Below, piece by piece: positions 26,920 through 58,892 of a stretch of DNA of 64,000 nucleotides. The DNA comes from a virus. Its lineage: Duplodnaviria > Caudoviricetes. The stretch spans positions 298 to 64,297 of the IMG/VR virus record IMGVR_UViG_2840908651_000002. One strand, 5' to 3'. Made by a program: the position numbers and the translations under genes. The notes under the pieces are model-generated. The model was given only the letters and a program-made list of their open reading frames with translations, was not told where the DNA came from and made no database searches. Within the stretch, counting starts at the first letter, position 1, and each line of letters begins with the position of its first letter.

Positions 26920-26941
26920 CCTTGTCGCAAGATGTGAAAGG
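26920..26941 (+). promoter_or_regulatory. CGCA-NGA-UGYG leader hairpin occluding the RBS of 26950
   Basis: CCTT(G)TCGCA-AGA-TGTGA-AAGG. Confidence 0.6.
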
Positions 26942-27669: not shown

Positions 27670-28047
27670 ATGGTCGCCCAAGACATGAACATGGCCCGGA
27701 TCGAGGATGCCGCCCAGCTTGCGCACGAGGTCAACCGCGCCTTCTGTGCCAGCATGGGCGATGGCAGCCAGCCCCGTTGGAATGACGCGCCCGACTGGCA
27801 GCGCGAATCCGCCATTCAGGGCGTGCGCCACGCCTTCGAAAACCCGCACGCCAGCCCCGAGGACAGCCACAACAACTGGATGGCGCAGAAGGCGCGCGAC
27901 GGGTGGCGGTTCGGGCTGGTGAAGGACGAGCGCGCCAAGGAACACCCCTGCATGGTGCGCTACGACCAACTCAGCCCCACCGAGCGCGTGAAGGACGCGC
28001 TCTTTCTCGCCGTGGTCCGCACCTACCTGGCGCTGGATCACGGCTGA
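27670..28047 (+). CDS. RyR-domain protein
   Basis: SHNNWMAQK..DGW.FG..KD...K.HPCMV.YDQL...E..KD. Confidence 0.8.
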   Translation: MVAQDMNMARIEDAAQLAHEVNRAFCASMGDGSQPRWNDAPDWQRESAIQGVRHAFENPHASPEDSHNNWMAQKARDGWRFGLVKDERAKEHPCMVRYDQLSPTERVKDALFLAVVRTYLALDHG

Positions 28048-28077: not shown

Positions 28078-28338
28078 ATGACCACCACCAAAGGTAAATA
28101 CCGCGTCGGCACGACCTTCAATCCTAGCGGCAACGATGTCGTGGACGAGATCAAGGCGCGCGCCGCCGATCTGATCGACTTCATCGAAAATGAGATCGAC
28201 GTGCCGCCGCACGAAACGCCCAACGAAACGCGCCAGAGCGCGGAAATCGCTCGCCTCAAGGCGTTGGCGCAGACGGAAATCGAAAGCGCGGCCATGTGGG
28301 CGGTCAAGGCCGCCACCAAGCGCAAACCGGGCGAGTGA
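28078..28338 (+). CDS. Acb2/Tad1-like helical-hairpin protein (candidate immune-signal sponge)
   Basis: FNPS...VDEIK..A..LID...RLKALAQTEIESAAMWAVKA. Confidence 0.6.
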   Translation: MTTTKGKYRVGTTFNPSGNDVVDEIKARAADLIDFIENEIDVPPHETPNETRQSAEIARLKALAQTEIESAAMWAVKAATKRKPGE

Positions 28339-29627: not shown

Positions 29628-29658
29628 TCGGGCCGAACGAAAGAAAGGGAGGCGCCGA

Positions 29659-29862
29659 ATGCTGGTGCTCAGGCTGAAAGCGTCGGACCGCGTGCAGGTC
29701 GGCGACCTGGTCTTCGAGATCAAGGAAGCGGCGGCAGGGCGTGTCCGTATCGCGTTCGGCGCTCCAAAATCCATCCCGATCCACAACGATACGAGCGGCG
29801 GCCCACCCGTGTTCGACCTCGACGAGCCGGAAGGAGGCATCACGCTGCATTCGCTCGAGTGA
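29659..29862 (+). CDS. CsrA/RsmA-fold RNA-binding protein (divergent)
   Basis: MLVL......V.VGD..........VRIA..APK.I.IH aligns with CsrA MLIL..........IGD...........VRIG..APK.V.VHR; RBS GGGAGG. Confidence 0.75.
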   Translation: MLVLRLKASDRVQVGDLVFEIKEAAAGRVRIAFGAPKSIPIHNDTSGGPPVFDLDEPEGGITLHSLE

Positions 29863-29893: not shown

Positions 29894-29921
29894 GGGGGCG
29901 TGATCTGCGCCCCCTTTTCTT
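29894..29921 (+). terminator. Intrinsic terminator ending the portal-scaffold-csrA unit
   Basis: GGGGGCG...CGCCCCC then TTTTCTT. Confidence 0.8.
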
Positions 29922-29930
29922 GTGACACAA

Positions 29931-29969
29931 CATATGGTATGCGTTTAACAGCTAGAGCGCATGATGTGC
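29931..29969 (+). promoter_or_regulatory. Late promoter box plus leader hairpin (capsid)
   Basis: CATATGGTATG-N15-GCGCA TGA TGTGC. Confidence 0.7.
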
Positions 29970-30006
29970 CTATGCAGGTCGTTCAAAACCCGCATGAGGA
30001 AACATT

Positions 30007-31101
30007 ATGCCCCAGACCATCATCCCCTTTGGCGACGTCAAGGCCCAGAAGAAGTGGTCCTCGAACCTCGCCGTCGACGTCCTCCACAAGAGCTACTTTT
30101 CCAAGAAGTTCATCGGCAAGGGCGACAACAACATCATCGAGCAGAAGACCGAGCTTGAATCGGACAAGGGCGAGAAGATCAGCTTCGACCTGTCCGTCCA
30201 GCTTCGCGGTGGCCCGACGCAGGGCGATGCCCGCGTGAAGGGCAAGGAAGAGAACCTGCGCTTCTACTCGGACGAGGTCATCATCGACCAGACGCGCAAA
30301 TCGGTCTCCGCTGGCGGCCGCATGACTCGGAAGCGCACCGCGCACGACATGCGCGTCGTCGCCAAGAACCGCCTCGGCGACTACTGGTCGAAGTACATCG
30401 ACGAGCTCATGTTCATCTACCTTTCCGGCTCGCGCGGGATCAACGAGGATTACATCGAGCCGACGGACTTCACCGGGCACGCGGGCAACCCGATCCAGGC
30501 GCCCGACACCCAGCACATCCTCTACGGCGGCGATGCGGTGTCCAAGGCCACCATCGTGGCGGCGGACAAGATGACCCGCAACGTCATCGAGCGTGCCTGC
30601 ACCAAGGCCCGCATGATGCGCGCCCTCGACCCCACCACCGCGAACATGATGCCGGTCTCCATCGAGGGCGAGGACCGTTACGTCACGGTCATGTCGCCCA
30701 ACCAGGAGCAGGACCTTCGCACGGATGAAGGCAACGGCTGGCTCGACGTCCAGAAGGCCGCCGCTGCCGCCGAGGGATCGAAGAACCGCATCTTCAAGGG
30801 CGGCCTGGGCATGATCAACAACGTGATCCTGCACAGCCACGAGAGCGCCATCCGGTTCAGCGACTATGGAACCGGCTCCGATCTCCCCGCCGCGCGGGCG
30901 CTCTTCATGGGCCGGCAGGCCGGTGTCTGCGCCTACGGCACCACCAAGGGCCAGCGGTTCATGTGGAAGGAAGAAATGGAGGACTACGATAACGAGCCGA
31001 CCGTCGTGGCGGGCACCATCGTTGGGTGCAAGAAGACCCGCTTCAACGGCAAGGACTTCGGGATCATGGCCCTCGACACCTACGCCACCCCGGCTGGCTG
31101 A
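30007..31101 (+). CDS. Major capsid protein (N4-gp56 / DUF4043 type)
   Basis: TELESDKGEKISFDL..QL..., GKEENL....DEVIIDQTR, F.G.DFG. Confidence 0.92.
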   Translation: MPQTIIPFGDVKAQKKWSSNLAVDVLHKSYFSKKFIGKGDNNIIEQKTELESDKGEKISFDLSVQLRGGPTQGDARVKGKEENLRFYSDEVIIDQTRKSVSAGGRMTRKRTAHDMRVVAKNRLGDYWSKYIDELMFIYLSGSRGINEDYIEPTDFTGHAGNPIQAPDTQHILYGGDAVSKATIVAADKMTRNVIERACTKARMMRALDPTTANMMPVSIEGEDRYVTVMSPNQEQDLRTDEGNGWLDVQKAAAAAEGSKNRIFKGGLGMINNVILHSHESAIRFSDYGTGSDLPAARALFMGRQAGVCAYGTTKGQRFMWKEEMEDYDNEPTVVAGTIVGCKKTRFNGKDFGIMALDTYATPAG

Positions 31102-37149: not shown

Positions 37150-37189
37150 CATATGGTATGAAACAGGTATCCCCGCGCAGGATGTGCGG
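37150..37189 (+). promoter_or_regulatory. Late promoter box plus leader hairpin (internal virion operon)
   Basis: CATATGGTATG-N14-GCGCA GGA TGTG; stem CCGCGCA/TGTGCGG. Confidence 0.7.
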
Positions 37190-37227: not shown

Positions 37228-37689
37228 ATGCCGCTACCCAACGATCAGATTGACGATCTCGCCCGGGAATGGGCTCTGGGCGACGAGGACGCGGTGCGGT
37301 TCCTGGTCAATTTCATGCACATGGTGCGACTGGCCGACGACATCGCCGACGGTGATAGCGCCGCGCCGGTGCCGGACATGGCCAACCTGCTTGTGCGGGC
37401 CTGGCTCGAGCATTCGTGCAACCCCTTCTTCCAGAGGCACAGCGGCGCGCTTGGCGCTACGATGGCGAACGCGGTTCTCATGTGGGAGAAAAGCGAGGAC
37501 TGGCGGCAGAGCGACAACCGCAAGACCCGCATGTTTGCCTTCGTGGCCCGAGAGACGGTCGAGCATGTCGCGCACACCGTTGCCTTCATCGTGGGCGGCT
37601 ACCAGCACGCGAAGGAGGTAGCGCAGGAAATCCACGAGTTGAGCCATCAGGCGAGCGGCGAAACCTTCGAGGATTGGGAGGTAGAGTAA
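37228..37689 (+). CDS. Helical protein with DDxxD motif
   Basis: VRLADDIADGD; NPFF. Confidence 0.75.
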   Translation: MPLPNDQIDDLAREWALGDEDAVRFLVNFMHMVRLADDIADGDSAAPVPDMANLLVRAWLEHSCNPFFQRHSGALGATMANAVLMWEKSEDWRQSDNRKTRMFAFVARETVEHVAHTVAFIVGGYQHAKEVAQEIHELSHQASGETFEDWEVE

Positions 37690-38741
37690 TGGGAATTTAT
37701 GGCGGCGGCAGCGCACCGAGCCCCGATCCCAAGATCGGCGAAGCCGCGATGAAATCGGCCGAGATCGGGGAAGACTATCTCGGCTTCATGCGCGAGCAGG
37801 CAAAAATCTCGAACAAGTGGGCCGAGGATGACCGTTCTCGCTACAAGAGCGTGTTCGAGCCACTACAGGACCAATACATCAACGAAGCACTGCAAGGGCC
37901 GGACTACGACGAGGTCGCGGGTTCTGTGCGCCGCGCCGGGGCTGATGCGCGCCGCCAGTTCAGCCTTGCACAGGGACAGGAAGAGCGCCGCCTTGCCGCC
38001 TCGGGTGTCGATCCCGCCTCGGGCCGGTCCCGCGAGGCCACCCGCCGCTCGGAATTGACCGAGGCTCTTGGCGTCGCCGGGGCGCGCAACACCACTCGGA
38101 TCACCGAACGGGCTCGCGCCGAGGACAGGGCCGACGCCGAGACCGCGAACGCGATCAACATGGGCTCAGGTCTCGCCGTGAACCCGGCCACGTCGCTGGG
38201 CATTTCCAACAGCGCCAATTCGTCGGGCTTTCGCGGTGCGATGCAGGGCTACGGCCAGCAGGGGCAGTTGCTCAACACACAGTATCAGCAGCAGCTTCAA
38301 TCGTGGCAGGCCGACCAGGCATCGTCCAACTCGATGTGGGGCGGCATCGGCAGTCTCGCGGGGCTCGGCATCTCGATGATGAGCTCCAAGGACTACAAGG
38401 AGGACAAGCGCCCGGCCCGCGGGGTGCTCGACACCCTCAAGGGGATGCCCGTGGAGGAATGGACCTACAAGAAGGGGATCGCGGACGAGGGCCGCCATAT
38501 CGGGCCGTATGCCGAAGACTTCCATTCCGCCACCGGCAAGGGCGACGGCAAATCCATCCCGTTTCAGGATGCCCTGGGCGTCACGATGGGCGCGGTGCAG
38601 GAGCTTGCCGACAAGGTGGACAAGCTCGAGGGCGGCAAGACGCGCCGCAAGCGTCCCGGCGGGCGCGGCGTGATGGACACCGCGCCGCGTGAGGCGTCGG
38701 GCTCCGGCCCCGAGCCGCGCAGCATCGCGGGGGCGGCCTGA
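37689..38741 (+). CDS. Internal virion / ejection protein with C-terminal S74-like chaperone domain
   Basis: GGGSAP.PDP start; Gly/Gln-rich; SSKDYK...EEWTYK...HIGPYAEDF. Confidence 0.75.
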   Translation: MGIYGGGSAPSPDPKIGEAAMKSAEIGEDYLGFMREQAKISNKWAEDDRSRYKSVFEPLQDQYINEALQGPDYDEVAGSVRRAGADARRQFSLAQGQEERRLAASGVDPASGRSREATRRSELTEALGVAGARNTTRITERARAEDRADAETANAINMGSGLAVNPATSLGISNSANSSGFRGAMQGYGQQGQLLNTQYQQQLQSWQADQASSNSMWGGIGSLAGLGISMMSSKDYKEDKRPARGVLDTLKGMPVEEWTYKKGIADEGRHIGPYAEDFHSATGKGDGKSIPFQDALGVTMGAVQELADKVDKLEGGKTRRKRPGGRGVMDTAPREASGSGPEPRSIAGAA

Positions 38742-41507: not shown

Positions 41508-41545
41508 TGCTAAGGTGCGCGAGACATACCGCGCATGATGTGTGG
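41508..41545 (+). promoter_or_regulatory. Late promoter-like box plus leader hairpin (giant gene)
   Basis: TGCTAAG...CCGCGCA TGA TGTGTGG. Confidence 0.6.
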
Positions 41546-41574
41546 CCACCCTCCAACTCCGTAAGGGGAAAGCT

Positions 41575-44500
41575 GTGGCACGCAAGAACGTCTTTGCGCT
41601 CGATCCCGTCGAATATGAGCTTGAACGTCAGGAGGCCCAACGCCAGGGCCGCGGCATTTTCGAGGAAAAGAAGCCGAAGGCGCCCGCGCCCGCGCTCAAG
41701 CCCGACGGATCGCCGGATTACGGGCGGATTGCCACGGACACGCAGGTCCCGCGCAACCTCATCATTGCCCTCACCGACGCCGCCGGTCTCAAGAATGGCG
41801 CACAGAAAGGCGCATTCGCCACCGAGGCCGCCAGCCGGATCGGGCAGGAAATGGCCGCGGGAAAGGATGCGCGCGCCGCGCTGGCGTCCATTCTGGGCGA
41901 GGATGCGCCGGTCGATGACCTGATCAAGGCGGCCAAGGCCGTGCCGGAATACGACCGGATCGGGACCGAAGGGGACGAGGCGGCGCAGGCCGATCCCACG
42001 GAAAGTGGATCGGCGCTCGGCGATGCCGGAAAGCAGTTCGCAGGCGGCGTCGCAAAGGGCTCTGGCGCGTCGGTCGAGGGCTTCGGCCTTCTGCGCACCA
42101 GCCGCCTTTACGACCCGCTGAACCTCATCAACGACGAGGGCAAGGAGCGCGTCGGCGAAGCCACCCGATCCGTTGCCGATGCCATGCGGGAGTGGGGCGA
42201 GGAAACGCAGGCCGGTGTCAGCCCGCAAAGCCTTGAGGCCATCAAGGGGAGCACGCCCGATGGCGACCTCTTCAAGCCGTCCACCTGGTCGCTTGGGGAG
42301 AAGCCGTCGCTGCGCGGATACGCGATGCTCACGATGGACGTGCTGGGCTCGCTCGCCCCGGTTGTCGTGTCGTCGGTGATCGGCACGCCGGGCGCGGGTG
42401 CGGCGGTCGGCGGGATGCAATCCGGTGGTGCGGGCGCGGAGATGGCGCGCGAGATCGTCCAGAGCGCCGCGAAGGAGCGCGTGGAAGGCCCGGACGGCGA
42501 AATGATCTCGCGCCTCGAGGCCGACAGTTCCTATTACCGAGATCTGCGCGAACAGGGCGAGAGCCACGAGGTCGCGGTTCAGAAGACGACCGAGGCGGCA
42601 GAACGGCTCGCCGCGCTCTACGCCGCGCCCATCGGTGCGCTTGGTGGTGCATTCACCGGGACCCTTGTCACGGGCGGCATGCGCGGGCTGGCAGGGAGAT
42701 CGGCCGCAACGCGCGTGGGCGGTGGTGCCGCGCTCGGGGCCGCCGAGGAATCGGCGCAAGAGGTTGCCGAGGGCATGGCGGCCAAGGCCGGGGCAGGGCA
42801 GGCCGCCGGCATGGATGTCGATGTGACCGAAGGCACCTTCGGCGACGCGATCCTGGGCGCACTCGGCGGCGGCCCGGTCGGCGCAGTAGGCGGGATTGCC
42901 ACCGAGGGCCCCGCGACGCGAGACGAAGACGACGAGACCCCGCCACCCGCGCAACTGCCACCTCCTGACACACCGCCCCTGCCGTCACCTGAGCCCACCG
43001 GCCCCATCGGGCGGGCTGCGCAGAAGGCCCCGGGTATGCTGACCGGCGATTTCGAGGAAGGCACGCGCATCACGGTGCAAGGACAGGGGAGCAACCCGTT
43101 CGAGGCCGAGTTCGTGGAGGAAACGCCCAACGGCGTGCGCCTGCGCGACGAGACCGGCCCCATCCTGATCCCGCGCCAGGACATCGAGAGCGGCGCGGTC
43201 CAGATCGGGCAGGCCGAGCGCCGCACGCCCACCGGCATGTTCCCCGACATGAAGCCCGGGGCCGAGGTGGCGCTGCGCGACGCGGACGGGCGGGACTATA
43301 CCGGCGTGTTCCTGCGTGAGGATGAGGGTGGCGTTGCGGTGCGGATCGCGGGGCAGGAGATTACCCTGTCGCCGCAGGAGTTCGACGAGGCCCGCGACGC
43401 GGCGCAGCGCGACGAAACCGACGCTCCGAAGGAGGCAGAGGCGCAGGATCAAGGCGCGGACGAGGCGGGAGCAGCCATCGAAATCCCCGAGGGCGTGGAC
43501 CCGGGCGAGGTCGAGCAGATCGCGTCGGACCTGATCAACGAACAGGACATGGACCGCCCGAGCGCCGAGGCGCAGGCGATCCAGACGATCCAGCAGCGCA
43601 TGGAGGAAGAGCGCGCCGCCGAAGAGCAGGCGGCGATCCCCGGCGCGCAGGACATGGCCGAACAGGGCGAGGTCACGCCGCCCGATGAGGGGCAGGCACA
43701 GGGGGAGGTCGCCCCGGTCGAGCCCCAGCCGCCCGCGTCGGTCGAGGGTGTCGACCCTGACCTCGACACCCCCCAATCCCCCGAGCTTCAAGCGGAGTGG
43801 TGGAAGAGCCTGCCCCGTCTGCGCAAGGCGGCGAAAGATATCGGAATGACCAAGGAGGCGCTGGCCGACGAATGGTCCGACAAGGGCGCGCTCACCGCCG
43901 CCGTGGACGCCGAGCTTGGTCGCCTCGGCGACACCGCGCAGCAATCGGGCCTGTCCCAAAATCCGGCACAGGAGCCCGAGAACGTCGATGACATCGACGT
44001 GGACGCCCTGATCGGCCAGAACCTTGATGAAATGGACGCTGAGGATGCCGCGCTTGTGGGTGATGAAAGCAACACAAGCGGCGTTGTGGAACAGGAACAG
44101 GGGGAAGGTGAACCACAAACTGACGAGGCCGACCCTGCCGCCGACATCGAACAGGCCGCGCAGGAGACCGAGGAAAACCCCACGCCCGCGCAGGCCGAGG
44201 CCGAGAATTACAAGACCGGAAAAGCCGAGTGGCAGGGGCGCACGCTCTCCATCGAGAACCGCAAGGGCTCTATGCGCCGCAAGGTCGGCCCCGACGGCGA
44301 AACCGCGTGGGAGGTCGAAATGCCCGCCCATTATGGCCGCATTCTCAAGACCGAGGGTGCGGATGGCGATCACGTCGATTTCTACATGGGCGACAACCCC
44401 GCCTCGGAATCGGTCTGGGTGATCGACCAGATGGACGCGGACACGGGCCGCTACGATGAGCACAAGGTGATGCTGGGCTTCGACAACGCCAATGCGGCGG

Positions 44501-47500
44501 CAGAGACCTACATGGACGGGTTCAGCGACGGCAAGGGGCCGGATCGCCTGGGCGGTATGCGCAAGATGAGCGTGACCGGGTTCAATGAATGGCTCGAGGG
44601 CGACACGACCGCGCCGGTGACACCGATGGCGAAACGGCAGGACAAGGACGCGGCGCAGGCAGGGGATGACACGAACCCGAAGGGCCCGCGCGTTGTCGTG
44701 AACGAGGTGGGGGCAGATGGGCTGACAGAGAGCGAGCGCGCCGCAGGAAAAGCGCCGCTCGACCTTGTGACGGTCACGGACGTCTACGGCGACACTCACC
44801 GGGTCAGTAAACGCACGCTCGACTCGGATCGCCCCATGCTGCGCCGCTTCAATGCCAATGGCGAAGAAATCGACGGCTCGCTCCTGTCGCGCGATAATAT
44901 CGACACAGACGGGACGGGGGTCACTGCCACCTTTGCTGATAGCCCTGTGATCGGCGGTGGCCGCACAGCAGACAAACCCCTTGCCAGTGAAGCCGCGATA
45001 AAGCGTGCGATCAGAAAGCGGGGGCAGAAGGTCGAGGATTTCGATATTCAGGAGGTCAACGGCGGCTACCTGGGTGTTCGGAAGACCGGGTCAGAAGCCG
45101 CCGAGGCCGAGGCGGCGGGGTGGACCGAGGACGCCACGCCGCCTGATGAGCCGCAGCCGCGCGAAGCGGAAAGCGTTGACGTGCGGACACTTCCCGGCAA
45201 ACACGGCAAGGTGGACACCAACCTTGTGAAGATCAACATGCGGAAGTGGCCGGAGGGCTATGACGTAACAGGGTCATACGATATTCCCGGCTTTGCTGGC
45301 GGCACCCTTTCCACGCCTTACCGCCAGTTCTATCCCACCAAGCACGAAGCGGCGGCGGCAGCGCTGAAAATGAGCGTTGGCCGCAATACATTCCCCGATG
45401 AGCCCCGCGCTCCGTTCCCGACCCAAAAGCATGTGTCGGATGGAAGGAAGATTCGTCAATTCCTAGAAGAGTTGGCGACCCCGGAAGCGTGGGCCGCCGA
45501 GGTCGAGGCTGAAAGTCCAAGTGTATCGATTGAACAGGACGCGGAAAATCGCTCCACTTCGACCGGCGACGCCCCCGCAGAGACCGTCGAGGATATCGAC
45601 GTCGATGCGCTCATCAGCGAGAACCTTGACCAGATGGAGGCCGAGGATGCCGCCGAATCCGAAGCGTCCACGAGCGACGAGCAGCGCATCACAGACAGCT
45701 TCCTCGAGGCATTCCGCGCCGGGGAACGGTTCGCGCGCATCACGCAGGCCCGCAAGCGCGCGGGCGAGGCGCTGGGACGCGATATCGAGGTCTCGGATTT
45801 CACGATGCTCGAGGAAGCGATCGAGGCCGCCGTCGTCATGCGGGCGCGCGAGATCGTCGCGGGCGAGAGCGATCCCGTCACCGTCTATGCCGACCTTCTC
45901 GACCTCTACGACGCGCAGCCGATCCTGTCGGAGCGCACGCCCGAGAAGATGCGCAATCAGGCATATTCCACGCCCGCCCCGCTGGCCTATGTCGCCTCGC
46001 GGCTCGTCGGGATCGGCGACCGGACGCGCGTTGTAGAGCCGTCGGCGGGCAACGGGATGCTCCTGATCGAGGCCGCGCCCGAGAACGTGCAGGCCAACGA
46101 GTTGCAGCCGCACCGCGCTGCACAGTTGGAGCGCATCTTCCCCGGTTCCGTGAGCCAGGGCGATGCGATGGACATGACGGCCGCACCGTTCGACGTGCTG
46201 ATCACCAACCCGCCTTTCGGGCGCGTCATGAACGAGGACACGCGCCAGAAGAAGGAGTGGGCCTTCGGCGACACGGGCGTCAAGACCAAGGAAATTGATC
46301 ACGCGATGGCGTATCGCTATCTCGAACAGATGCCCGACGATGGCCGCGCCGTCCTGATCGTGGGCTCCGTGAAAAAAACCGGGGACCGCAAGAAGAATTA
46401 CCAGGAGCGGTCGAAACTCACCTTTTACAAGACCCTTTTCGACCATTACAATGTAACCGAGCACTTCACGGTCAATGGCGACCTCTACAAGCGGCAGGGT
46501 GCGGCATGGCCGGTCGATGTGATCGTGATCGACGGGCGCGCGCCCTCTGCCCGCGCCTATCCGATGGCAGAGCCGCCCGAGGTTCTTTCGACCTGGGCCG
46601 AGATTGGAAGGAAGCTGAACGATGCCCCTGACGTGGACACCACCGGGCGCGGACCCGGTGACGCAGTCGGTGGAGGTGCCGAAGGCGATGGACCTGACGG
46701 TGGAGCAGTATCACCAACTGGTGATGCAGCGGGTCAACCGGATGCGGGACGAAGCGACCGACCCAGCGGATCGCGCGGCACTGGCGGACTTTCTGTCGAA
46801 CCGGGGCGCGGAGCCCGCGGCGACACTGGTGGGGATGGTGAACCAGTTGGAGGAAACGGCCAACCTGCCGTGGAGCCTGACGCCGCCCCGGACGTTTCCG
46901 GTGAAGAAGGAAGACCTGAAACTGGAACGGATGGAGCGTCCGAACCTGTCGGCGTTTCTGAACGCCATCGAGAGCCGGGGGGCGTAGGGCCCCGCACCGC
47001 CGGTCAGGCGGCGCAGGAGGGCGTCCAGAAGACCGGCGATGCCGTGAAGGACGCCGGGGCCGCGATCAAGGCCATCCTCAACGCAAAGATCGACCCCAAC
47101 AAGACCGGGGCGATGGGTGCGGGCTTCCTGCAAGACGTCTACGAGCAGATCGAGCCGCACCTGAAATCCGCTTGGGACAACGTCACGGGCGCGGCCAAGG
47201 ATTTCAAGGAGGCGGTGGGGCTGTTCCTGCGCGCCGTGCGCGAGCAGATGGGCCTGACCACCGCCGAGTTGCGCAACCTGCAACCCTACCTCGCGAAATT
47301 CGTGGAAGACGCGAAAGCCGCATGGGGCAAGCCGAAGTCCGAGCGTGGCCCGGCGCGCGAGAACACCGAGGCCGAGACAGACTTTCAGGTGGCCTACCAG
47401 CCACGCTCGTCGGCACAGTTCCGGATCGGCTCCCTGGTCCCGCGCGCGATGGAGCAGGCCGCCCAGGAGGCGCTGGACAAGATCGAGGCCAAGCACGGCC

Positions 47501-50500
47501 CCGTTGACAAGTATGTCGCGAGCGAGCTGGGCTATGATCTCGACGACATGCTGGGCACGCCCGAAAAGAAGGGGTATTTCGCCGCCGAGCAGGTCGATGC
47601 GCTGGCTCTGGCGATCAACAACGTCAGTCAGGGCAAGGGCTTCATCATTGGCGATCAGACCGGAATCGGCAAGGGCCGGTTCGTGGCGGCCATGCTGCGT
47701 CATGCCGAGAAACAGGGGAAGATCCCGATCTTCGTGACCGAGAAACCCGGTCTCTATGCCGACATGGTGCGCGATCTGCGCGATATAGGCATGGCCGACG
47801 CGCAGGACGGGATCATCGCGACGAACAACACGCTCGACGCCATCCCGATCACGGGGCCGGATGACACCTTTACCAGGGCGGCACCGAAGGAGCGAAAGGC
47901 TCTCTTCAACGCGCTGATGTCGGGAAAGCTGCCCGAAGGCAAGCGGTTCGTGTTCACCACCTACGACCAGATGCAGACCGCGCAGGGCAAGTGGCCCGAG
48001 CGCGCCAACGCGATCCGCGCTGCGGCCCCCAATGCCGTCATCATCATGGATGAAAGCCACAACGCGGGCGGCAGCGCGGGCGCGTCCCGCAACGTGCGAG
48101 AGCCCGGCGCGATGCCGGAGAACCGTGCCGAGTTCTTCCGCGACCTGGTCGATATGAGCGCGGGATCGGTGTTCTCGTCGGCGACCTACGCCAAGAACCC
48201 CACGGTCATGTCGCTCTACCGCTCGACCAACCTGAGCCTTGCGCTGCCAGAGGGCAGCCGCATGGACGATCTCGGCCCGGCCATCGAGCGCGGCGGCGTG
48301 CCCCTGCAACAGGTGATTGCCAATGCCATCGCGGGCGACGGCCAATACCTGCGGCGTGAGAAATCCTTTGCCGGGATCGACTTCAACTTCACGCACGAGC
48401 TCGGCGACGACAACCCGATCAAGGTGGATCGGGATATGGCCATCAACGTCTCGCAGGTGATGGGCGAGATCGCGATGTTCGACTCCGAGGTCATGTCTGG
48501 CGTGCGCGAGAGCTTCATCGCGCAAATCCAGGGTGAGGGCCTGATGGCGGGCAATGACGGATTCGTCGGCCCGGATTCGATCTCCAAGACCAGCGACAAC
48601 CCGTTTGCGTCGAGCTTTCACAACCTCGTCAGCCAGTTCCTTCTCGGCGTGAAGGTGAACGAGGTCGCCGACATGGCGATCAACAAATGGAAGGCCGGCG
48701 AGAAGCCCATCCTCGGCGTGATGAACGTCAACTCGTCGGTGATAAACGAGTACATGGCCGTGAATGGCATTCATGAGGACGGCCAGGAGGTCGATCTGAA
48801 TTTCACGACCATCGTGGACCGCTACCTCGAGCGCCTGCGCCGCATCAAGATCGAGAAATCCGACAACACGCAGTTCTACTACACCATGACCGACGCGGAC
48901 ATGGGCGACGCCGCCGCGGCGGAAATGCGGCGGGTGCGCGATCTGATCTACAGCCTGCCGATCGAGGACATGCCTGGATCGCCTGTCGATGCGATGCTCG
49001 ACCGGATGCGCGCGGCGGGTATGAAGGTCGATGAGATCACGGGCCGCAGCACCGTGATCGAGGACGGCCGCCGCGCCACACGCTCGCCGGGGCAGGGCGA
49101 GAACAAGCGCCGAATGAACGAGTATAATTCCGGCGCGCTCGATGGGCTGGTGATATCGTCATCCGGGGCGACGGGCTTTTCCATGCACGCGACCGACGCA
49201 CCGAACAACGACGGCAAAAAGCGGCACATGATCATCGCCCAGCCCCATGCCGATATCAACGTGTTCATGCAGATGCTCGGGCGCATCAACCGCACCGGCC
49301 AGACCGTGTTGCCGGAATACACGCTCGCAGTCTCCAACCTGTCGCTCGAGCGGCGCGTGGCGGCGATCCTGTCGAAGAAGATGGCGTCGCTCAACGCCAA
49401 CACGACAGCCGCGAAGCGTGGGGCGACGTCGCTCGGCGATGGCGCGGATTTCATCAACGAGGTGGGCGATCACGTCGTGCGCCGCTACCTTGCCGACAAC
49501 AATGATCTCGCCATCAGGACGGGCCTTGTCGAGGGCGATGCCGACGGTGACCAGAACGGCAAGATCGAGGGCATTGCCAAGAAGCTGACCGGGCGGTTCG
49601 CGTTTCTGCACCCCGACGAGGTGGACCGGCACTACGAGGCCATCGGCTCGGCGTTCCGTGACTACATGGCGCAACTCGAGGTCGAGGGCAGCAACCCCCT
49701 CGAGGCGAAAACCCTCGACCTCGAGGCGAAGACCATCAGTTCTTTTGTGCTGTCCGAGGGTCATGGCACTGATAGCCTTCTCGATGCCGATCTGACGCTC
49801 GAGAAGATCGACGCCAAGAAACCGGGCAAGCCGTACACCGCGCAGCGTGTCGATGAGCTCGTCAACGAAGGGCTCGACGGCAAGACCCCGGATGCGTGGT
49901 TGAAAGATGCACAGGACGCGCTCGACGCGAAGATGCCCGCCTACCAGACCAAGCTCGAAGAGGACAAGGCGGATCGTGAGAAGAGGCTGGCCGCCGCGCA
50001 AGACACCGCGAGGCAGGCCGAGGCCGCGATCCCACGGCTGGAAGAATCCCTCGAGAAGGCAAAGGTTGCGCGCGACGAGGTGAACGCGGCGGACGACGAC
50101 GCCAGAAAGGCGGCGGCGGATGCCGTCAAGAAGGCCGACAAGGCGCTCTCGCAGGCGCGGCGTCACGTCACCAAGACCAAGCGGGACGTCGAGAAGGCGG
50201 CCGCGCTCATCGAGGACGTCGAAAACCGCATGAAGCGGCAGGAGCAGGCGGTCGCGAGCATCAAGACGGCGCTGGAAGGCGTTGTCCCGGGGGCGACATA
50301 CCGCATCACGACACCGTCCTTTGACACTCCGGCGGTGGTGATCGAGACCGATCTGTCCCAGCAGGGGGCAAACCCGACAGCGGCGGGCGCAATCCGCGTG
50401 CGCTTTGCCGTGGCCGACAACATGCGCGAGATCGCCTTCTCGCTCAACCAGATCATGAACCAGAGCGCCGAGGCGAACATCACGCCTGATCCCAACCTCA

Positions 50501-53500
50501 ACTGGAAACCGGCGTTCACGGCGGGGCAGAGCGTGTCGCGCGAGCAGCGGTGGATGGCGACAGGCAACCTTATCGCCGGGGTCGACCGCTTCAAGAACAG
50601 CACCGGGCAGATCGTGATCTACACGACCGCTGATGGGCGTCAGCGCACCGGGCTTCTCATGCCCAAGAAATTCGACCCAGCACAGGAGTTGGACAAGGAG
50701 GACGTCCGTTTCCCCGACACCGCGACGGCGGCCGCGTTCCTGCAACAGTATGATGCGGTTCTGAAAACCGCCGACAAGAACGTGAGTTTCCAGCAGGACG
50801 GCGCCGACTTCAAGCTCCGCGTGGGCAAGGCGCGGGGCCGGGCCTTCTTCTTGCTCAAGGCGGTGCAGTCCTACATCCGCGATTTCCGTGACACCGGGAA
50901 GGGCTATGTGGGCCGGATCAATCGCGGTGATCTGAAAACCGTGCTCGACATCTATGCCGATAATCTCGGGGTGTCCTATGTCGCTGACAATTTCAAGGAT
51001 GCGGCGCGCGAGGTTTCCGGGCAGGAAACCCCTGATTTCGAGGCCGGGGCGGGCAGCGAGGTAAAGGCCGCACGCGGGCGGCGCGCAGGCGCGGGGAGCA
51101 CGACCTTCACGGAAGAAGGCGCGCGCCAGTTGCGCAATGACCTCGAGGCCGAGCTTTCGCGGTTCGTCAAGTCCGGTCGGATAAAGCTGCGCCTGGCCGG
51201 CGGCTTTACATATGGCGGCTTCACTCTCGACGGGTTCTTCTACGACAACGTGATCGGTGTTGGCGCCAAGGCCCCGGAGGGGCCGATGGGCATTCTGCGC
51301 CACGAGATCATCCACGCGCTCCGCAGCAAGGAGCTTTGGGGCCGTGATTACGGCCTGTTCACCAAGGACGAATGGCGCACGCTGGCCAAGGCTGCCCGGC
51401 GCATCCCGCATATCCGCGAGCGTGTCGAGCGTGAGTATGCCGATCTGAACACCGCGGGCCAGACCGAGGAAATGATCGCCGAAATGTTCCGCGAGTGGAT
51501 GCAGGAGCGCGAGACGCGCAGCGAGGCGGGCAAGGCCCTCGACAAGCTGCGCCGGATCATCGAGGCCATCGCGAACGCTCTGCGCCGCAACGGGGCGAAC
51601 GAGGCCGCTCAGGTGATGGAGCGTATCCGTTCGGGCGAGGTTGGCGGGCGCGGCCCGGACGGCCCCGGTGGGCCAGGTGCTGGGGGCGTCAAGGCCAGCC
51701 GCCGTCGCTCCGACCCGTCATCGCCGCGCGGTGTGCCGCACCCCAAGCCCCGCCAGTGGCGCAAGAAGGGTGGTGACCTCTGGCGCGATTTCCTCTCCGA
51801 TGCGATGGGGGGCGGCCCGCTTGGTAAATACAACCTCCTGGCGCTTGTTCCGGGCCGACCGCTCTTTGAAGAGCTCGGGCGCAACCTGCCCGGCGCACAG
51901 ACCTATCTGCGTCTCAAGGAAAAGATGGACGCAATGCGCCAGGAGTGGCACGCCAAGACCGACACCGTGGCGCGCGAGTGGATCAAGCTGGGCAACCAGA
52001 ATACCGAGGCCAATGGTCGCCTCATGGACCTCATGCACCGCGCGACGCTGGCTGGCGTGGACCCATCCAGGGACTTTGATCGCGGCAAGTATGACGATGA
52101 TTTCGCCGATCAGCGCTACATGACGTGGCTGAACCTGCGCCGCGAGTTCGAGGCGCTGCCGCGAGACTATCAGCGCATGTTCCGCAAGGTGCGCAACGAA
52201 TACAGCAACATGGCCGACGAGTTCGAGAAGGCCGTGATAGAGAACATCCAGACCGCGCAGAAGGTCGCCCTCAAGCGCGCCCAGAAGGCCCATGACAAGG
52301 AAATGCGTCGGATCACCGACGAGGGCCTGACCGGGCAGGAGAAGCAGGACGCCATCGACGAGGCGAAGCACATGCTCGGCCAGGCGAAAGCCCGCATGGG
52401 CTGGGCGCAGAACGCGCGGGTAGCGGAATTGCGCGCGCAGTTCGAGTCCAACCGTCTCTCGGGGCCTTATTTCCCGCTGGCGCGTTTCGGCAAATATTTT
52501 GTGGCCGCACGCGACGAGAAAGGCCGGGTAGTCTCCTTCTCGCGGTTCGAGAAACAGCGCCAGCAGCGCGACGAGGCGAAGCGCATGGAAGCCGAGGGCT
52601 ACGAGGTGGAGCGCGGCGTGCTGGGCGAGAGCGACGCAGATCTCAAGAAGATGGTCGATCCGTCCTTCGTGGCCGATATCGAGAACCTTCTGGGGACGTG
52701 GGATGTGGACCCGGCCGTCATGGACACGGTCTGGCAGAAATGGCTGGAAACGCTGCCGGATCAGTCGATCCGCACCAGCCGCATTCACCGCAAGGGCCAA
52801 TCGGGTTTCAGCAAGGATGCGCTGCGCGCCTTCACCCACCATATGTTTCACGGGGCACACCAACTGGCCCGCCTGAAATACGGGCTACAGATGGAGGACG
52901 CGGTCAGCGACGCCTACGACGAGGCCGCCCTGAGCCGCGACGCGAACCGCGCGACGCTCGTGGTCGACGAAATGAACCGCCGCCACCAGTACACGATGCA
53001 ACCCAACGTCGCGCCGTGGGCCAGCGGGATCACGTCTTTGGCGTTCGTTTGGTATCTCGGGGCAACCCCGGCAGCGGCGATGGTCAACATGACGCAGACG
53101 ACCGTCATGGGCGTGCCGCTGATGCGCGCCGCCTTCCAGGGCACCAGCATTGGCGAGATCGGCAAGCAGTTGGGCAAGGCCAGCATGGATTTTGTGCAAG
53201 GCCGGGGGTCCGCCGACAACTCGCCGCGCCTCACCGAGGATGAAAAGGCCGCACTCGACGAAGCCTACCGCCGGGGCACGATCGACAAGACGCAGGCGCA
53301 CGAGCTCGCGAGTGTGGCCGAGACCGGGATCGAGTATAGCGGGACGCGCGAGAAGATCATGCGGTTCTTCTCCTATATGTTCCACAAGGCCGAGGTCTTT
53401 AACCGAGAGGTCACGTTCCTCGCCAGCTATCGCCTCGCGCGCGACAAGGGGCTCATGCAGGAGAAGGCCATCGACCGCGCCGCCTCGCTGACGTGGAAAA

Positions 53501-54565: not shown

Positions 54566-54604
54566 CATGTGGTATGGATAGGCCAGCAACGCGCAAGATG
54601 TGTG
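54566..54604 (+). promoter_or_regulatory. Late promoter box plus leader hairpin (tail fibre/DGR)
   Basis: CATGTGGTATG-N14-GCGCA AGA TGTGTG. Confidence 0.7.
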
Positions 54605-54638
54605 CTGCAAGCTGACTTTCTCAGGTCGAGGCTTTGCA

Positions 54639-57600
54639 ATGCCAGACTCTTGCGCCGTTTCGGGCTCCATCAGGGATATCGGTTTTCAGCCGGAAGAGGG
54701 TGCGATCGTTCGCTTCACTCTTCTTGGCGCGAAGGCCGTGCGCCAATCCAATTCGCTCGTCGTGCCGGATTTCGTCGAGGCGACCACTGACGCGAATGGC
54801 GACTTCACCGAGAGCCTGATCCCGAACAGCTATATCGTTGAGATCATCACGCCGAGCGGCGGATCTTCCGCGCCCCTGAACATCACCGTTCCTGACGCCG
54901 AGACGGCGATCTTGGCTCAGATCGTGGACCTGCCGCCCCCGGCGTCGCTGAACGCTGCCGAACAGGCTGTTGTGGATGCACAGGCGGCGCGGGACGCCGC
55001 GAGCGCCAGCGCCACGGCGGCTGTGACCAGCGAGACCAATGCAGCGACCAGCGAGGCGAATGCCGGGACCTCTGAAACGAATGCTGGTGCATCTGCTCAA
55101 CTCGCCGCCGATTGGGCTGAAAAGGGCGACGGCCAAGATGTTGATGGCGTCGGCACCCGCTCGGCCAAGCATCATGCCGGTCAGTCGGCGACCAGCGCGA
55201 GCAATGCAGCCATCTCGGAGACGAACGCGGCTAACAGTGCAGCGGCGGCTGCAACGTCCGAGACCAACGCGGGGGCATCCGAGAGTGCGGCGACCGCCAG
55301 TGCGGGCGCGGCGTCTACCTCGGAGACCAACGCGGCCAACAGTGCATCGGCGGCGTCTACCTCGGAGACCAACGCGGCCAACAGTGCATCGGCGGCGGTC
55401 ACATCGGAGACCAACGCGGCCAATAGCGCGAGCGCGGCGGCTGGTTCCGCGAGCGCCGCCGCCTCTTCGGAGACGAACGCGGCAACCAGCGAAACCAATG
55501 CGGCCGCCTCCCTGACGTCGATCCTCTCCCGCCACCTTGGCACCTATGTCGACGACCAGGCGGCGGATACGGCGCACCCAACTGCGACGGACGGCGCGTT
55601 CTATTACAATTCCACCACCGACTCCCTTCGCCTGCGCTCGTCTGGCGCGTGGACTGAAGCCGTTCTGGACGCCAACGGGTTTCTGGCCGCGTCCAACAAC
55701 CTGGGCGACCTGGGCGACGTGCCGACGGCAAAAACGAACCTCAGCCTCGGCACGGCGGCAGATGCAGATGTCCCTGCGGCGGGCGACGCCACTGCTGCGC
55801 AGGTTGTCAAAGGCAACGATACGCGATTGAGCGATGCGCGTGCCCCGACTGCGCACACCCACGACCTATCCGACATCACCGATGCGGGCACCGCGGCTTC
55901 GCAGGATAGCACGGCATTCGCCACCGCCACCCAGGGCACGAAGGCTGATAGCGCGCAACAGCCCCCGATTGAGGGTGCGTTCGTTGATGGCGACAAGACC
56001 AAGTTGGATCATATCTCCGTCACCCAGGCGGTTGATCTGGATGCGATGGAGACCCGCGTCAACCAACTTGATGCGTCAGTTGTTCTCTCGGGAACGTGGG
56101 ACGCTTCCATAGGCACATTTCCCGGTGGCGGCGCTGCGCAGAGGGGCGAAAGCTGGATCGTCAGTGTCGGCGGGACAGTTGGCGGCGAGACCTTTGTTGC
56201 GAATGATCGGATCGTCGCGACCTCGGACAACGCGAGCACCACGCTCTATGCCGATTGGCACAAGCTCGATTATACCGATGCTGTCTTGTCCGTGGCAGGC
56301 AAGACCGGAGCCGTGTCGCTGGTCAAAGCCGACATCGGGGATTTCAGCGATGCGGATTATGCAACGGCAGCGCAGGGCGCGAAGGCCGACAGCGCATTAC
56401 AGCCGGGTGAAGCGGTAGAGAAAACAGCCGCAACCGGCTCAGCGGCCCTGCCGGTCGGCACGCAAGCGCAGCGCGACACTACCCCGGCGGCGGGGTATCT
56501 ACGCTTTAACTCAGAGGCCGGCGCGTTCGAGGGCCACGATGGCTCTGACTGGGGCGCTATCGGCGGGTCGGCGTCCTCGGTGAATATCACCGGCGCGACC
56601 ACGGTCTACGTTGACCAGCAGGAAACCTATACGATCACGGACTATTCGGCCTTCGCGACCTATGCCGTCGGCGCGGCGTCCGGCACAGTGACCATCAACG
56701 GCGACACCATCACCTACACCGCGCCCGCGACGGACGGCTCGGAAACCCTGACGGTCACGAAAGACGGCGTGGCGGTTGACTTCGCAGTCACCATCGCCCC
56801 TGCCGGGGTCGAGGCACCCACACATGTATCTCCGGCGGACGGCGCCACTGACATAGGTGGCACCCAGACACTTCAATCGTCGGCTTTCAGCTGGATCGGC
56901 CTGTCCGACACACACGCGTCCTCGGACTGGCAGCTAGCGACGGATGCTGCGTTCACCAACCTGGTCACCAGCACCACGGCGGATGCCACGAACCTCACCA
57001 CCTGGGAGGTCACGGGGCTGTCGGAGAGCCAGACCTATTACTGGCGCGTCCGCCACACCGGCACGAGCAACGGCACATCGGACTGGTCCACCCCCACCAG
57101 CTTCACGACAGCGGCCAGCTTCGGCGGTCTGATCGGTGTCGCGGGCGACCAGGGTTTCGGCGTCGGGGAGTATCCGGACACGCTGCCAGCAGGCTTTTCC
57201 AACATGGCTGGCAATACCGATCCGGCCAATGCCAATTATGGCAACTACCAATACAGCGACGGCTCGATCATGGTGTTCGTGCCGCGCTTCTACTACCGGA
57301 TCGGCGACGCGGGATCACCCAACTACGGCACCTACGGCGCCAACGCGATCGACATTGCCGGGGTGGATACCTTTGCGGACGAGGCGTCGGCCAACGCCGC
57401 AGGCTACGCCATGCACCGGGCGTTCGTGGATGGCGGCGCGGTCAAGCACGGGTTCTTCGTGGACAAGTATCTATGCTCGCAGAATGCAGGTAACGACGCC
57501 GGCAAATCGGTTCAGAACGGCGTGCCGATCTCGCTGACCACATCCACCAGCTACACGCGCTCCGACGGCATGACGGGCTGCACGGGCATTCTGGCCGACG

Positions 57601-58433
57601 CGGTGGTTCTATCCCGCGCGCGCGCCGCGGGCATGAATGCGGCCTCGGCGTTTATTTATTCGGCGCTCTGGCTGCTGTCTGTCGCGCACGGGCAGGCGGC
57701 CACGGCCGCGACGAACTGCGCCTGGTATGACGGCACCGACACCACGAACTACCCCAAGGGCTGCAACAGCGCCCTCGCGGACGTGGACGACGGCACGGTG
57801 ACGTTCACGACTGCGGGCGACAGCGGCAGTGCTGACAAGCCCCTGACCGGCTCGGCCAGCAACCTCGCCAAAACCGCGCACAACGGTCAGGCTTGCGGCG
57901 TTGCCGACCTTAACGGGGCGATGTGGGAGGTCATGCTGGGCATAACTGCGCCGGGCGCCAATGCGACCGACAGCACACAAATCGCCAGCGGCGACGTCTA
58001 TGTGCTCAAGGAGAGCGCCGCCCTCGGCGATTTGACCAGCGGATACAACACCATCAACGACGCCTGGGGCGATGCCACGCATCTCGGCGGGCTCTATGAC
58101 TCCGAGGTCGGACTGATGGTGTGGGGTGCCACCACCGGGTGGCAATATCTCGGCAGCGGCACCAACCAGGTGCTGGATGGCGCGACCAGCGGGCAGGGAT
58201 ACCAGCGCACCGCGACCGGGCTGCCCATGGCCACCAACAGCTATGACGCTACGGGCACAAACCTGTGGGGGCTTGATGGGCAATACGCTTACAACCGGTC
58301 GAACCTTTTCCCGCTCGTCGGCGGCACTTGGGCCAATGGCTCGGCCGCCGGCGTTGGCGCGCGCTTCTGGTACTCCTACCGGTCGTATGACTCCACCGTC
58401 GTTGGGTTCCGCGCCGCGGCCTATGGATCGTAA
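54639..58433 (+). CDS. Tail fibre / receptor-binding protein, DGR target with C-terminal CLec-type variable region
   Basis: Stf-like SETNAA repeats, FN3-like domain (YYWRVR..SDWS), DLNG.MWE, GGTW....G.........GFRAA. Confidence 0.92.
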   Translation: MPDSCAVSGSIRDIGFQPEEGAIVRFTLLGAKAVRQSNSLVVPDFVEATTDANGDFTESLIPNSYIVEIITPSGGSSAPLNITVPDAETAILAQIVDLPPPASLNAAEQAVVDAQAARDAASASATAAVTSETNAATSEANAGTSETNAGASAQLAADWAEKGDGQDVDGVGTRSAKHHAGQSATSASNAAISETNAANSAAAAATSETNAGASESAATASAGAASTSETNAANSASAASTSETNAANSASAAVTSETNAANSASAAAGSASAAASSETNAATSETNAAASLTSILSRHLGTYVDDQAADTAHPTATDGAFYYNSTTDSLRLRSSGAWTEAVLDANGFLAASNNLGDLGDVPTAKTNLSLGTAADADVPAAGDATAAQVVKGNDTRLSDARAPTAHTHDLSDITDAGTAASQDSTAFATATQGTKADSAQQPPIEGAFVDGDKTKLDHISVTQAVDLDAMETRVNQLDASVVLSGTWDASIGTFPGGGAAQRGESWIVSVGGTVGGETFVANDRIVATSDNASTTLYADWHKLDYTDAVLSVAGKTGAVSLVKADIGDFSDADYATAAQGAKADSALQPGEAVEKTAATGSAALPVGTQAQRDTTPAAGYLRFNSEAGAFEGHDGSDWGAIGGSASSVNITGATTVYVDQQETYTITDYSAFATYAVGAASGTVTINGDTITYTAPATDGSETLTVTKDGVAVDFAVTIAPAGVEAPTHVSPADGATDIGGTQTLQSSAFSWIGLSDTHASSDWQLATDAAFTNLVTSTTADATNLTTWEVTGLSESQTYYWRVRHTGTSNGTSDWSTPTSFTTAASFGGLIGVAGDQGFGVGEYPDTLPAGFSNMAGNTDPANANYGNYQYSDGSIMVFVPRFYYRIGDAGSPNYGTYGANAIDIAGVDTFADEASANAAGYAMHRAFVDGGAVKHGFFVDKYLCSQNAGNDAGKSVQNGVPISLTTSTSYTRSDGMTGCTGILADAVVLSRARAAGMNAASAFIYSALWLLSVAHGQAATAATNCAWYDGTDTTNYPKGCNSALADVDDGTVTFTTAGDSGSADKPLTGSASNLAKTAHNGQACGVADLNGAMWEVMLGITAPGANATDSTQIASGDVYVLKESAALGDLTSGYNTINDAWGDATHLGGLYDSEVGLMVWGATTGWQYLGSGTNQVLDGATSGQGYQRTATGLPMATNSYDATGTNLWGLDGQYAYNRSNLFPLVGGTWANGSAAGVGARFWYSYRSYDSTVVGFRAAAYGS
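55028..55510 (+). repeat. Coding heptad/14-aa repeats (SETNAANSASAAST), including a perfect 42-nt tandem at 55311-55394
   Basis: Repeated GAGACCAACGCGGC units. Confidence 0.85.
58306..58425 (+). repeat. DGR variable repeat (VR)
   Basis: 120-bp ungapped match to 58893-59012; 16 mismatches, all opposite TR adenines. Confidence 0.97.
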
Positions 58434-58438
58434 CTGGT

Positions 58439-58460
58439 GGGTGGCGCGGGAGCGCCACCC
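58439..58460 (+). promoter_or_regulatory. DGR target-recognition hairpin
   Basis: GGGTGGCGC-GGGA-GCGCCACCC, perfect 9-bp stem just 3' of VR and absent after TR. Confidence 0.88.
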
Positions 58461-58474
58461 TTGAAGGACAGAGA

Positions 58475-58888: not shown

Positions 58889-58892
58889 AATG

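Follow-up and report, generated by a model that had tools for sequence, protein, structure and literature searches.

What would a phage do with a CsrA-like protein in a host order that is nearly devoid of CsrA, and why would the gene for it stand just ahead of the capsid gene? The question is raised by a stretch of viral DNA of 64,000 nucleotides (nt), hereafter the window, which corresponds to positions 298 to 64,297 of the IMG/VR record IMGVR_UViG_2840908651_000002 (Duplodnaviria; Caudoviricetes). It encodes a CsrA-like protein of 67 amino acids (aa) in the last gene of an operon that includes the portal and scaffold-like genes, followed by a terminator-like stem-loop and by the leader of the major capsid gene. 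An initial annotation of this DNA, made by a model without database searches, had proposed that the protein recognises small hairpins in several late leaders.

The capsid leader was found to carry a conserved 5' element whose loop resembles a CsrA site and is predicted to pair with the capsid start region. Judging from sequence comparison, it is likely that the CsrA-like protein binds this leader, activation and repression of translation being taken together. Slightly less than an even chance is given to the more precise reading that we prefer, in which binding of the protein to the 5' element governs translation of the capsid gene, probably because the start site then stays open. The earlier reading is partly supported; the hairpin that it described is more aptly regarded as one of the states of a switch in the leader.

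The CsrA-like protein and its distribution

The observation of a CsrA-like open reading frame (ORF) with its own ribosome-binding site is confirmed (Table 1), and structure prediction gives this ORF the CsrA fold over residues 1-44. Searched as a single sequence, the protein matches the Pfam family PF02599 (CsrA) over residues 1-42 with an E value of 5.3e-6 and 26.7 bits, 0.3 bits short of the curated cut-off of 27 bits, which its relatives from loci L038, L019 and L009 clear. The top match of phmmer in the PDB is RsmE (2jpp_A, E 0.022), in an alignment that sets I-H-N-D under V-H-R-E, and therefore Asn43 at the place of Arg44, and L-R-L-K under L-T-R-K. A profile of 29 family members reaches RsmE with an E value of 3.2e-13 and CsrA with 5.1e-10. 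The AlphaFold2 monomer has a predicted local distance difference test score (pLDDT) of about 91 over residues 1-40 and of 48-71 beyond residue 40, with values below 50 at residues 56-65. No C-terminal helix appears in this less confident part of the model, in line with the initial annotation. Strands beta1 and beta5 are unpaired in the monomer, which is expected because these strands pair across subunits. The 13 best Foldseek matches in the PDB are all CsrA, RsmA or RsmE chains, with a root-mean-square deviation of 0.9-1.5 A over 38-45 columns; for the top matches it is about 1.0 A over 44 columns, at E values of 7e-3 to 7e-2 that are weak because the protein is short. The earlier description of the protein therefore holds.

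One departure from known CsrA proteins concerns position 44, where the initial annotation had rightly seen an Asn. Papers cited here by PMC accession are represented by extracts of their text. According to these, Arg44 is indispensable if RsmA is to bind RNA (PMC3791407), and in RsmE complexes it either contacts the loop backbone or is stacked against the first A of the A(N)GGAX motif (PMC4005645). In this residue the window protein, with Asn43 aligned there, departs from the family. Among 42 distinct proteins of the phage family, position 44 is R in 27 and N, H, K/L, V, G, C, L or Y in the other 15. The likeness to CsrA, RsmA and RsmE (PF02599; PDB 2jpp, 1y00 and 1vpz) lies in the fold over residues 1-44, in a length of about 60-70 aa and in the beta1 and beta5 edges; within the subfamily, conservation is highest in beta1 (MLVLKLK) and the beta5 region. 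The phage protein differs by the Asn at Arg44, by L-R-L-K in place of L-T-R-K/R in beta1, by the lack of a predicted C-terminal helix and by its origin from a phage whose host order essentially lacks CsrA.

The window is a prophage. An identical locus (L065) is recorded from a roseobacter-group alphaproteobacterium; no near-identical phage DNA was found in the phage collection. The initial annotation had noted that most Alphaproteobacteria lack chromosomal csrA. Indeed, only one of 121 genomes of the host order has a CsrA match, which belongs to the same prophage module (Arg44, AUGGAU loop). The host order being nearly without CsrA, a host Csr system is an unlikely partner.

By sequence, the protein is hard to trace. 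In a set of 1.84 billion representative proteins, the single-sequence search gave only 10 matches at E <=0.001. When the phage collection was searched by tblastn with the 67-aa protein, no match was obtained, not even to the named Bcep22-like members. As to kinship with the named members, the match to phrog_9500 is weak (E 0.066). A profile of the window's own subfamily finds Arg44-type ORFs at the same position with E values of 1e-6 to 1e-2, and both types can be aligned.

By position, it is found much more readily. Of 48 viral loci found by their related capsid, 38 have a CsrA-like ORF directly 5' of the capsid leader, and five of the ten others have at most 210 nt of upstream sequence. Among genome loci, this holds for six of nine by profile, to which a divergent ORF in L066 is added. 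The order scaffold-like gene then CsrA-like gene is likewise found in related loci and annotated phages, and gene and leader accompany each other in phages whose hosts belong to three proteobacterial classes. At the same position, a "CsrA-like regulator" is annotated in phages BcepIL02, Bcep22, Itty13, PEp14, Gervaise, LASTA, Parlo and Skulduggery, whose hosts are Alpha-, Beta- and Gammaproteobacteria; relatives of two members account for 47 and 12 phage records. Three distant capsid relatives devoid of the CsrA-like gene have their capsid gene 12-23 nt after the scaffold gene and no leader. For the co-occurrence of gene and motif, which the initial annotation had offered as a test, the outcome is mixed: these three agree with it, and five loci, most of them fragments, keep the element with no gene in view.

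The Bcep22-like podophages provide a close known parallel. They include BcepIL02 (gp49), Bcep22 (gp54), DC1, JC1 (gp47), CSP3 (orf23) and the Ralstonia phages GP4 and Gervaise, and further Erwinia PEp14, Klebsiella LASTA, Serratia Parlo and Pseudomonas Itty13. They share with the window the order portal, scaffold-like, CsrA-like, capsid, the capsid family (61-70% identity), and the leader element with its predicted start-closing helix, a feature that is defined here and not in the literature. Their CsrA-like proteins are only 17-32% identical to that of the window, Burkholderia and Ralstonia members retain Arg44 and the GGA loop, and they have one site where the window has several.

The gene itself is not new, although the initial annotation knew of no description: besides the eight annotations, it is discussed in PMC7366521, PMC8450108, PMC9144972, PMC10269572 and PMC11879866. 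In the extracts of these papers and of PMC8310193, phage CsrA-like genes are listed and termed morons or possible host manipulators, and roles in host manipulation or against CRISPR are proposed (PMC8450108, PMC9144972, PMC10269572, PMC8310193). Furthermore, one peptide of the CsrA-like protein was found in virions of phage JC1 (PMC9144972), and knock-down of the csrA homologue of another phage gave small plaques (same set of papers). The extracts on Bcep22-like phages treat these genes as morons and name no phage target. In the literature search, which covered neither supplements nor Gill et al. 2011, no phage target was named and no paper tied a phage CsrA homologue to a capsid leader. A phage-internal RNA target for the CsrA-like protein thus appears undescribed.

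Several relatives show particular arrangements. In Ralstonia phage Gervaise (L058, 2790-3501), CsrA-like gene and capsid leader are separated by an extra 95-aa ORF of unknown function, which shows that they need not be adjacent. In the Rhizobiales-type proviruses L064 and L074, the scaffold-like and CsrA-like genes are 33-38 kb from the capsid gene, in L064 (1378-1917, - strand) on the strand opposite to it; the capsid leader retains the element, with an AUGAC loop. The CsrA-like ORF of L017 (5660-5884, the same as in L067; 74 aa) has two profile matches, at profile positions 2-21 and 2-43, which suggests a partial internal duplication of the N-terminal strands. The single-sequence search also returned P0005 (1749 aa, 10 matched stretches) and P0006 (194 aa, three tandem copies of a 57-aa unit with P-I-H-N-D), which are probably unrelated repeats.

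A capsid leader with two predicted states

Each of the 47 unique related leaders examined contains, 39-56 nt upstream of the AUG, an element of the form GCGC-A(N)GA(N)-GUGC. This set was used for the presence of the element and for z scores; minimum free energy (MFE) structures and pairing counts refer to a set of 38 unique leaders. C8, A9 and G11 of the element are invariant, A12 is at least 90% conserved, and neighbouring positions vary. The A, G and A of the loop are more constrained than pairing by itself requires. Like the CsrA sites A(N)GGAX (PMC4005645), the candidate phage site consists of an A(N)G(G)A loop in a short stem near the ribosome-binding site, here A(N)GA(N); the loop of the window, AUGAU, differs by its single G in place of GGA.

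The initial annotation had seen a hairpin in the capsid leader. Folded alone, a 22-nt stretch does form this small hairpin (-6.5 kcal/mol). In the leader as a whole (29953-30021), however, it is not the predicted stable fold. The predicted structure, of -22.7 kcal/mol (z -3.65; 1 of 200 shuffles equally stable), instead joins its loop and 3' arm to the region from the Shine-Dalgarno (SD) sequence to the AUG. The same prediction recurs among the relatives. The element loop is paired with the start region in the MFE structure of 33 of 38 leaders, five or more such pairs form in 37 leaders, pairing takes in the AUG in 30, and two or more of the four SD bases are paired in 29. Stability exceeds that of shuffled sequences, with a median z of -3.1 and z below -2 in 40 of 47 leaders. 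Duplexes between the 5' element and the start region are better for cognate than for non-cognate partners (permutation p 1e-4), an advantage that persists with one representative for each of 21 element types (p 5e-5). At the loop position before GA, the pairs counted on the per-sequence folds are G-C (22), U-A (11), G-U (5) and A-U (1), which are compensating changes.

The long-range helix was tested by register-free duplex energies and per-sequence folds. RNAalifold, applied to a MAFFT alignment of the leaders, returned the small hairpin only. It missed the long-range helix because the 3' half of the alignment is out of register, and its outcome is therefore no argument against this helix. 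The small hairpin is possible in 98.6% of the cells scored. In these models, hairpin and start-closing helix are mutually exclusive states of the leader that share the GUGC arm and the loop, and the start site is predicted to be sequestered by the very strand that bears the CsrA-type site.

Other copies of the element and the late region

In the window, four exact copies of GCGCANGATGTG (at 29957, 37175, 41531 and 54591) are all intergenic and on the + strand. With one mismatch, 11 matches were found against 3.3 expected, a number reached by none of 100 shuffles. Genomes of the window's clade carry three to five strand-specific copies in late leaders, and the shorter pattern GCANGATGTG has 15 matches in five related genomes of the clade, all on the late-gene strand, against one control match. 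The motif that the initial annotation had placed in late leaders is in this respect real; its "spanin leader" site at 61014 is rejected, as it has one mismatch and lies inside an open frame. Nor does the proposed regulon of five leaders generalise. In five isolates from Beta- and Gammaproteobacteria, the relaxed motif is no commoner than the control and there is one site, in the capsid leader. Across relatives, the capsid-leader copy is the only one that is a general feature.

Predicted folds differ among the additional leaders of the window. In that of gene 37228, the element pairs with the AUG region (-24.5 kcal/mol, z -2.1), and the leaders of 41575 and 54639 fold no better than shuffles (z -0.7 for the latter). 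The stretch directly 3' of the hairpin of the giant gene is complementary to the GTG 41575 start, and orthologous leaders in three other genomes keep the element, with U, G or A as N of the loop. The longest ORF of this gene (4332 aa) spans 41542-54540 (+); its start falls within the leader hairpin, for which reason GTG 41575, after AGGGGA, is the likely true start.

Three exact copies of GCGCANGATGTG stand 14-15 nt after a box CATRTGGTATG, exact copies of CATATGGTATG being found at 29931, 37150 and 54566, and in related genomes element copies lie 14-16 nt after similar boxes. With two mismatches, CATRTGGTATG has 16 matches in place of 13.3 expected, which is no enrichment, and only the three exact copies adjoining the element are notable. 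The box upstream of the capsid gene is not a sigma-70 consensus match, and a sigma-70 scan found no promoter there. Of the earlier claim that the CsrA-like gene is the last before a terminator and the capsid promoter, the place of the gene and the terminator are borne out, a comparable terminator-like hairpin being present at the equivalent place in L002; what remains of the promoter is a conserved box. At gathering scores, Rfam recognised no family in the window from 26000 to 56000, and no antagonist small RNA of the CsrA type was seen in this search.

Table 1. Coordinates of the CsrA-like gene, the capsid leader and the copies of the element in the window
Feature	Position	Strand	Remarks
One-mismatch copy of the element, TCGCAAGATGTG	26925..26936	+	The gene that follows portal has its ATG 14 nt downstream; syntenic in L002
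Scaffold-like gene, 323 aa	28656..29627	+	Directly 5' of the CsrA-like gene, same operon; phrog_8246, E 1.3e-36
SD sequence GGGAGG of the CsrA-like gene	29647..29652	+	7 nt upstream of the ATG; read from the sequence
CsrA-like gene, 67 aa	29659..29862	+	ATG start; Asn43 at the Arg44 place; acidic Pro/Gly tail
Terminator-like stem-loop (9 pairs, 7 G-C) and T run	29894..29918	+	Closes the portal-scaffold-CsrA-like operon
Promoter-like box CATATGGTATG	29931..29941	+	15 nt 5' of the capsid-leader element; putative promoter
Capsid-leader 5' element GCGC-AUGAU-GUGC	29957..29969	+	Alone folds as a small hairpin
5' strand of the predicted long-range helix, GCAUGAUGU	29959..29967	+	MFE and centroid structures of 29953-30021
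Central leader hairpin	29969..29999	+	Predicted; outer pairs include AGG of the SD sequence GAGGA
3' strand of the predicted long-range helix, ACAUUAUGC	30002..30010	+	Predicted; holds the start codon (30007-30009) of the capsid gene
Major capsid protein gene, 364 aa	30007..31101	+	Pfam Phage_capsid_3, E 7.8e-63; phrog_334, E 3.1e-118
Exact copy, loop AGGAU, leader of gene 37228	37175..37186	+	Box at 37150; syntenic in L002
Exact copy, loop AUGAU, leader of the giant gene	41531..41542	+	Likely start GTG 41575
Exact copy, loop AAGAU, leader of the tail-fibre gene beside the retroelement cassette	54591..54602	+	Box at 54566; likely start ATG 54639

The window corresponds to a late region of podovirus type, with genes for small and large terminase, portal, capsid and virion proteins, the giant ORF, a tail fibre with a diversity-generating retroelement (DGR) cassette and an endolysin. 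In the head module, an 86-aa ORF (28078-28338, +) matches Pfam PF24729, the Acb2/Tad1 hairpin domain (E 9.7e-12); phage proteins of this family act as sponges for nucleotides of immune signalling. A 125-aa ORF (27670-28047, +) combines a RyR domain (Pfam E 2.1e-10) with strong PHROG matches of unknown function. Positions 37228-38741 (+) contain two overlapping ORFs in different frames, one of 153 aa from 37228 and one of 441 aa from 37416, the latter with a Peptidase_S74 chaperone domain. Positions 54600-60662 (+) contain the 1277-aa tail-fibre gene and, after it, the DGR-like cassette, with a bAvd-like gene (58475-58888), a spacer of 206 nt, a reverse transcriptase gene (59095-60126) and a DUF4376 protein. 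No result bears on the influence on DGR activity that the initial annotation had held possible.

Protein, leader and capsid synthesis

From the fold, the synteny, the RNA element and the predicted pairing, we infer binding, its direction and its timing. In this phage lineage, the gene for the divergent CsrA-fold protein is fixed at the end of the portal-scaffold operon, ahead of a terminator and of a separately transcribed capsid gene. In its hairpin form, the element would expose in its loop an A(N)GA that resembles a CsrA site; in the alternative form, the loop and 3' arm would pair with the stretch from SD to AUG, often including both, and shut the ribosome-binding site. The protein would capture the hairpin form and block the closing helix, and the start site would stay open. 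As the 5' hairpin is transcribed about 45 nt ahead of its competitor, bound protein would hold the start site open. Capsid protein would then be produced only after expression of the portal-scaffold operon. In the window's clade, which has Rhodobacterales hosts, three or four more late leaders begin with the element, N being free, and the control would be wider.

Such a mechanism has precedents. CsrA can activate translation by opening an SD-sequestering structure, as for ymdA of Escherichia coli, or act by protecting the 5' end, as for flhDC. The logic proposed for the phage is the same, with a site in the strand that closes the ribosome-binding site, at the 5' end of the mRNA. It differs in that regulator and target would be neighbours on one phage genome, and in that a second hairpin lies within the predicted closing helix, whose span is about 45 nt. 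Phages are also known to control assembly genes at the level of translation, as in the autoregulation of the P22 scaffold, T4 RegA and the MS2 coat-operator pair. The likeness proposed here is that of a small phage protein tuning the translation of morphogenesis genes through a start-proximal RNA hairpin; the CsrA-like case differs in fold, and would have a separate regulator gene, coupled to the scaffold operon, and the capsid gene as target.

A link between protein and RNA is suggested by the joint occurrence of gene and leader, by the constrained loop bases, by the near absence of CsrA from the host order and by the association of position 44 with the loop. Among the 42 distinct proteins, 26 combine Arg44 with a GGA loop and 14 another residue with a non-GGA loop, with two exceptions; expressed otherwise, 26 of 27 GGA loops go with Arg44 and 14 of 15 other loops with other residues. 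Those paired with single-G loops are N, H, K/L, V, G, C or L. The Fisher test of this association (p 4e-9) ignores kinship and is not evidence by itself, and a test on independent pairs had 1-2 usable pairs and hence no power. It was also considered whether non-GGA loops shield the leader from host CsrA. The four gammaproteobacterial phages first examined all fit this idea, which was abandoned since Skulduggery (Pseudomonas; GGA, Arg44) does not fit and since hosts without CsrA carry both loop types.

Several points weigh against control of the capsid leader by the protein. The window protein is devoid of the Arg44 reported as essential in RsmA (PMC3791407), and the two exceptions to the association are PEp14 (Arg, AUGAC) and L066 (Tyr, AGGAU), the latter with a weakly matching ORF (hhalign 82%). 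The capsid tree shows about two changes of loop type and about three of the residue, so few that the association has little independent support. As for the leader, the small hairpin is the MFE structure in just one of 38 cases and has nearly no covariation (one double change, matched in 32 of 500 shuffles), the compensating pairs of the long-range helix come from folds fitted to each sequence, and the start-closing helix could function without any protein. At five related loci the element is present and the available sequence contains no CsrA-like ORF; four are fragments (records 9-40% complete) and one is a complete provirus, in which the ORF lies about 33 kb away, beside the scaffold-like gene. 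Finally, the phages of Beta- and Gammaproteobacteria have no regulon, their motif count being no higher than the control, and the peptide in JC1 virions hints at another role (PMC9144972).

If the protein does bind the leader, it may act in the opposite direction. Repression through a site at the SD sequence is the textbook mode of CsrA. A dimer that spans the 5' element and another A(N)GA/GGA site, located at the SD sequence (CAUGAGG or CAUGGAG), would repress capsid translation and keep capsid output proportional to the scaffold operon, an explanation that we consider unlikely. Most leaders do have a purine motif of the same type that overlaps the SD sequence (CAUGAGG in the window, while GGA-type leaders have AUGGAG or CAGGAG), the two sites are about 35-45 nt apart, and the A(N)GGAX motif is described (PMC4005645). 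However, SD sequences are purine-rich anyway, so that the second site may be due to chance, and some are of a GAGGCA type without GGA. The start site is predicted to be closed already without the protein, and a repressor therefore seems redundant for the most needed virion protein. Activation is modestly favoured over repression.

A protein-independent RNA element, the protein having a host-directed or other role, is on the whole rather doubtful. In the quite unlikely case that the element acts alone in cis, it would stabilise or attenuate late mRNAs or form part of a late promoter, and the protein would act on host mRNAs, in line with the host-manipulation and anti-CRISPR proposals (PMC8450108, PMC9144972, PMC10269572, PMC8310193). 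The helix is well supported without invoking a protein, the element occurs at five loci without the gene in view, and independent co-changes of protein and loop are few. Yet the gene holds its position by the capsid leader in three proteobacterial classes, Csr-less hosts included (PMC7366521); of a host-specific moron, one would expect gain and loss. Furthermore, many copies lack the Arg44 needed for canonical host GGA targets, and the loop A, G and A are invariant beyond the needs of pairing.

It is still less probable, indeed very improbable, that the protein has lost RNA binding and become a protein partner, such as an assembly or virion factor, or that the hairpins are boxB-like sites for another factor that modifies RNA polymerase. 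Their fixed distance of 14-16 nt after a promoter-like box recalls the nut sites of lambda, and the likeness to N/boxB hairpins extends to a GC stem of 4-5 pairs, a five-base purine-rich loop and a fixed short distance after the promoters of several operons. The Asn in place of the essential Arg44 (PMC3791407), the JC1 virion peptide (PMC9144972) and the binding of CsrA to proteins such as CesT and FliW (titles of PDB 5z38 and 5dmb) would fit a loss of RNA binding. On the other hand, it is in beta1 and the beta5 region, by whose edges CsrA binds RNA, that the subfamily is best conserved. No candidate antiterminator was seen, although none was looked for. We know of no N-like protein or boxA in this phage system, and the phage element, unlike nut sites, is complementary to the start codon region, which points to translation and not to transcription.

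Activation of capsid translation by the CsrA-like protein remains the preferred reading. A tentative extension of it, which we hold to be doubtful, is that of an orthogonal phage CsrA-RNA pair serving as an assembly checkpoint, in which position 44 and the loop have shifted together and which controls a regulon of 4-5 late leaders in roseobacter hosts. If this is true, the joint shifts of position 44 and loop (GGA against single G) would be natural variants with different specificities, and such small protein-RNA pairs (Arg44 with GGA; Asn or His with single G) could serve as independent translational switches, also in hosts without a Csr system.

The gene is annotated in dozens of phage genomes, usually as a host-manipulating moron. 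A conserved target beside it would, if confirmed, replace this guess by a testable role in virion production. It would also add a further case of CsrA-type activation and a simple means of timing capsid synthesis. Irrespective of the protein, the predicted start-closing helix of capsid leaders matters for phage gene expression.

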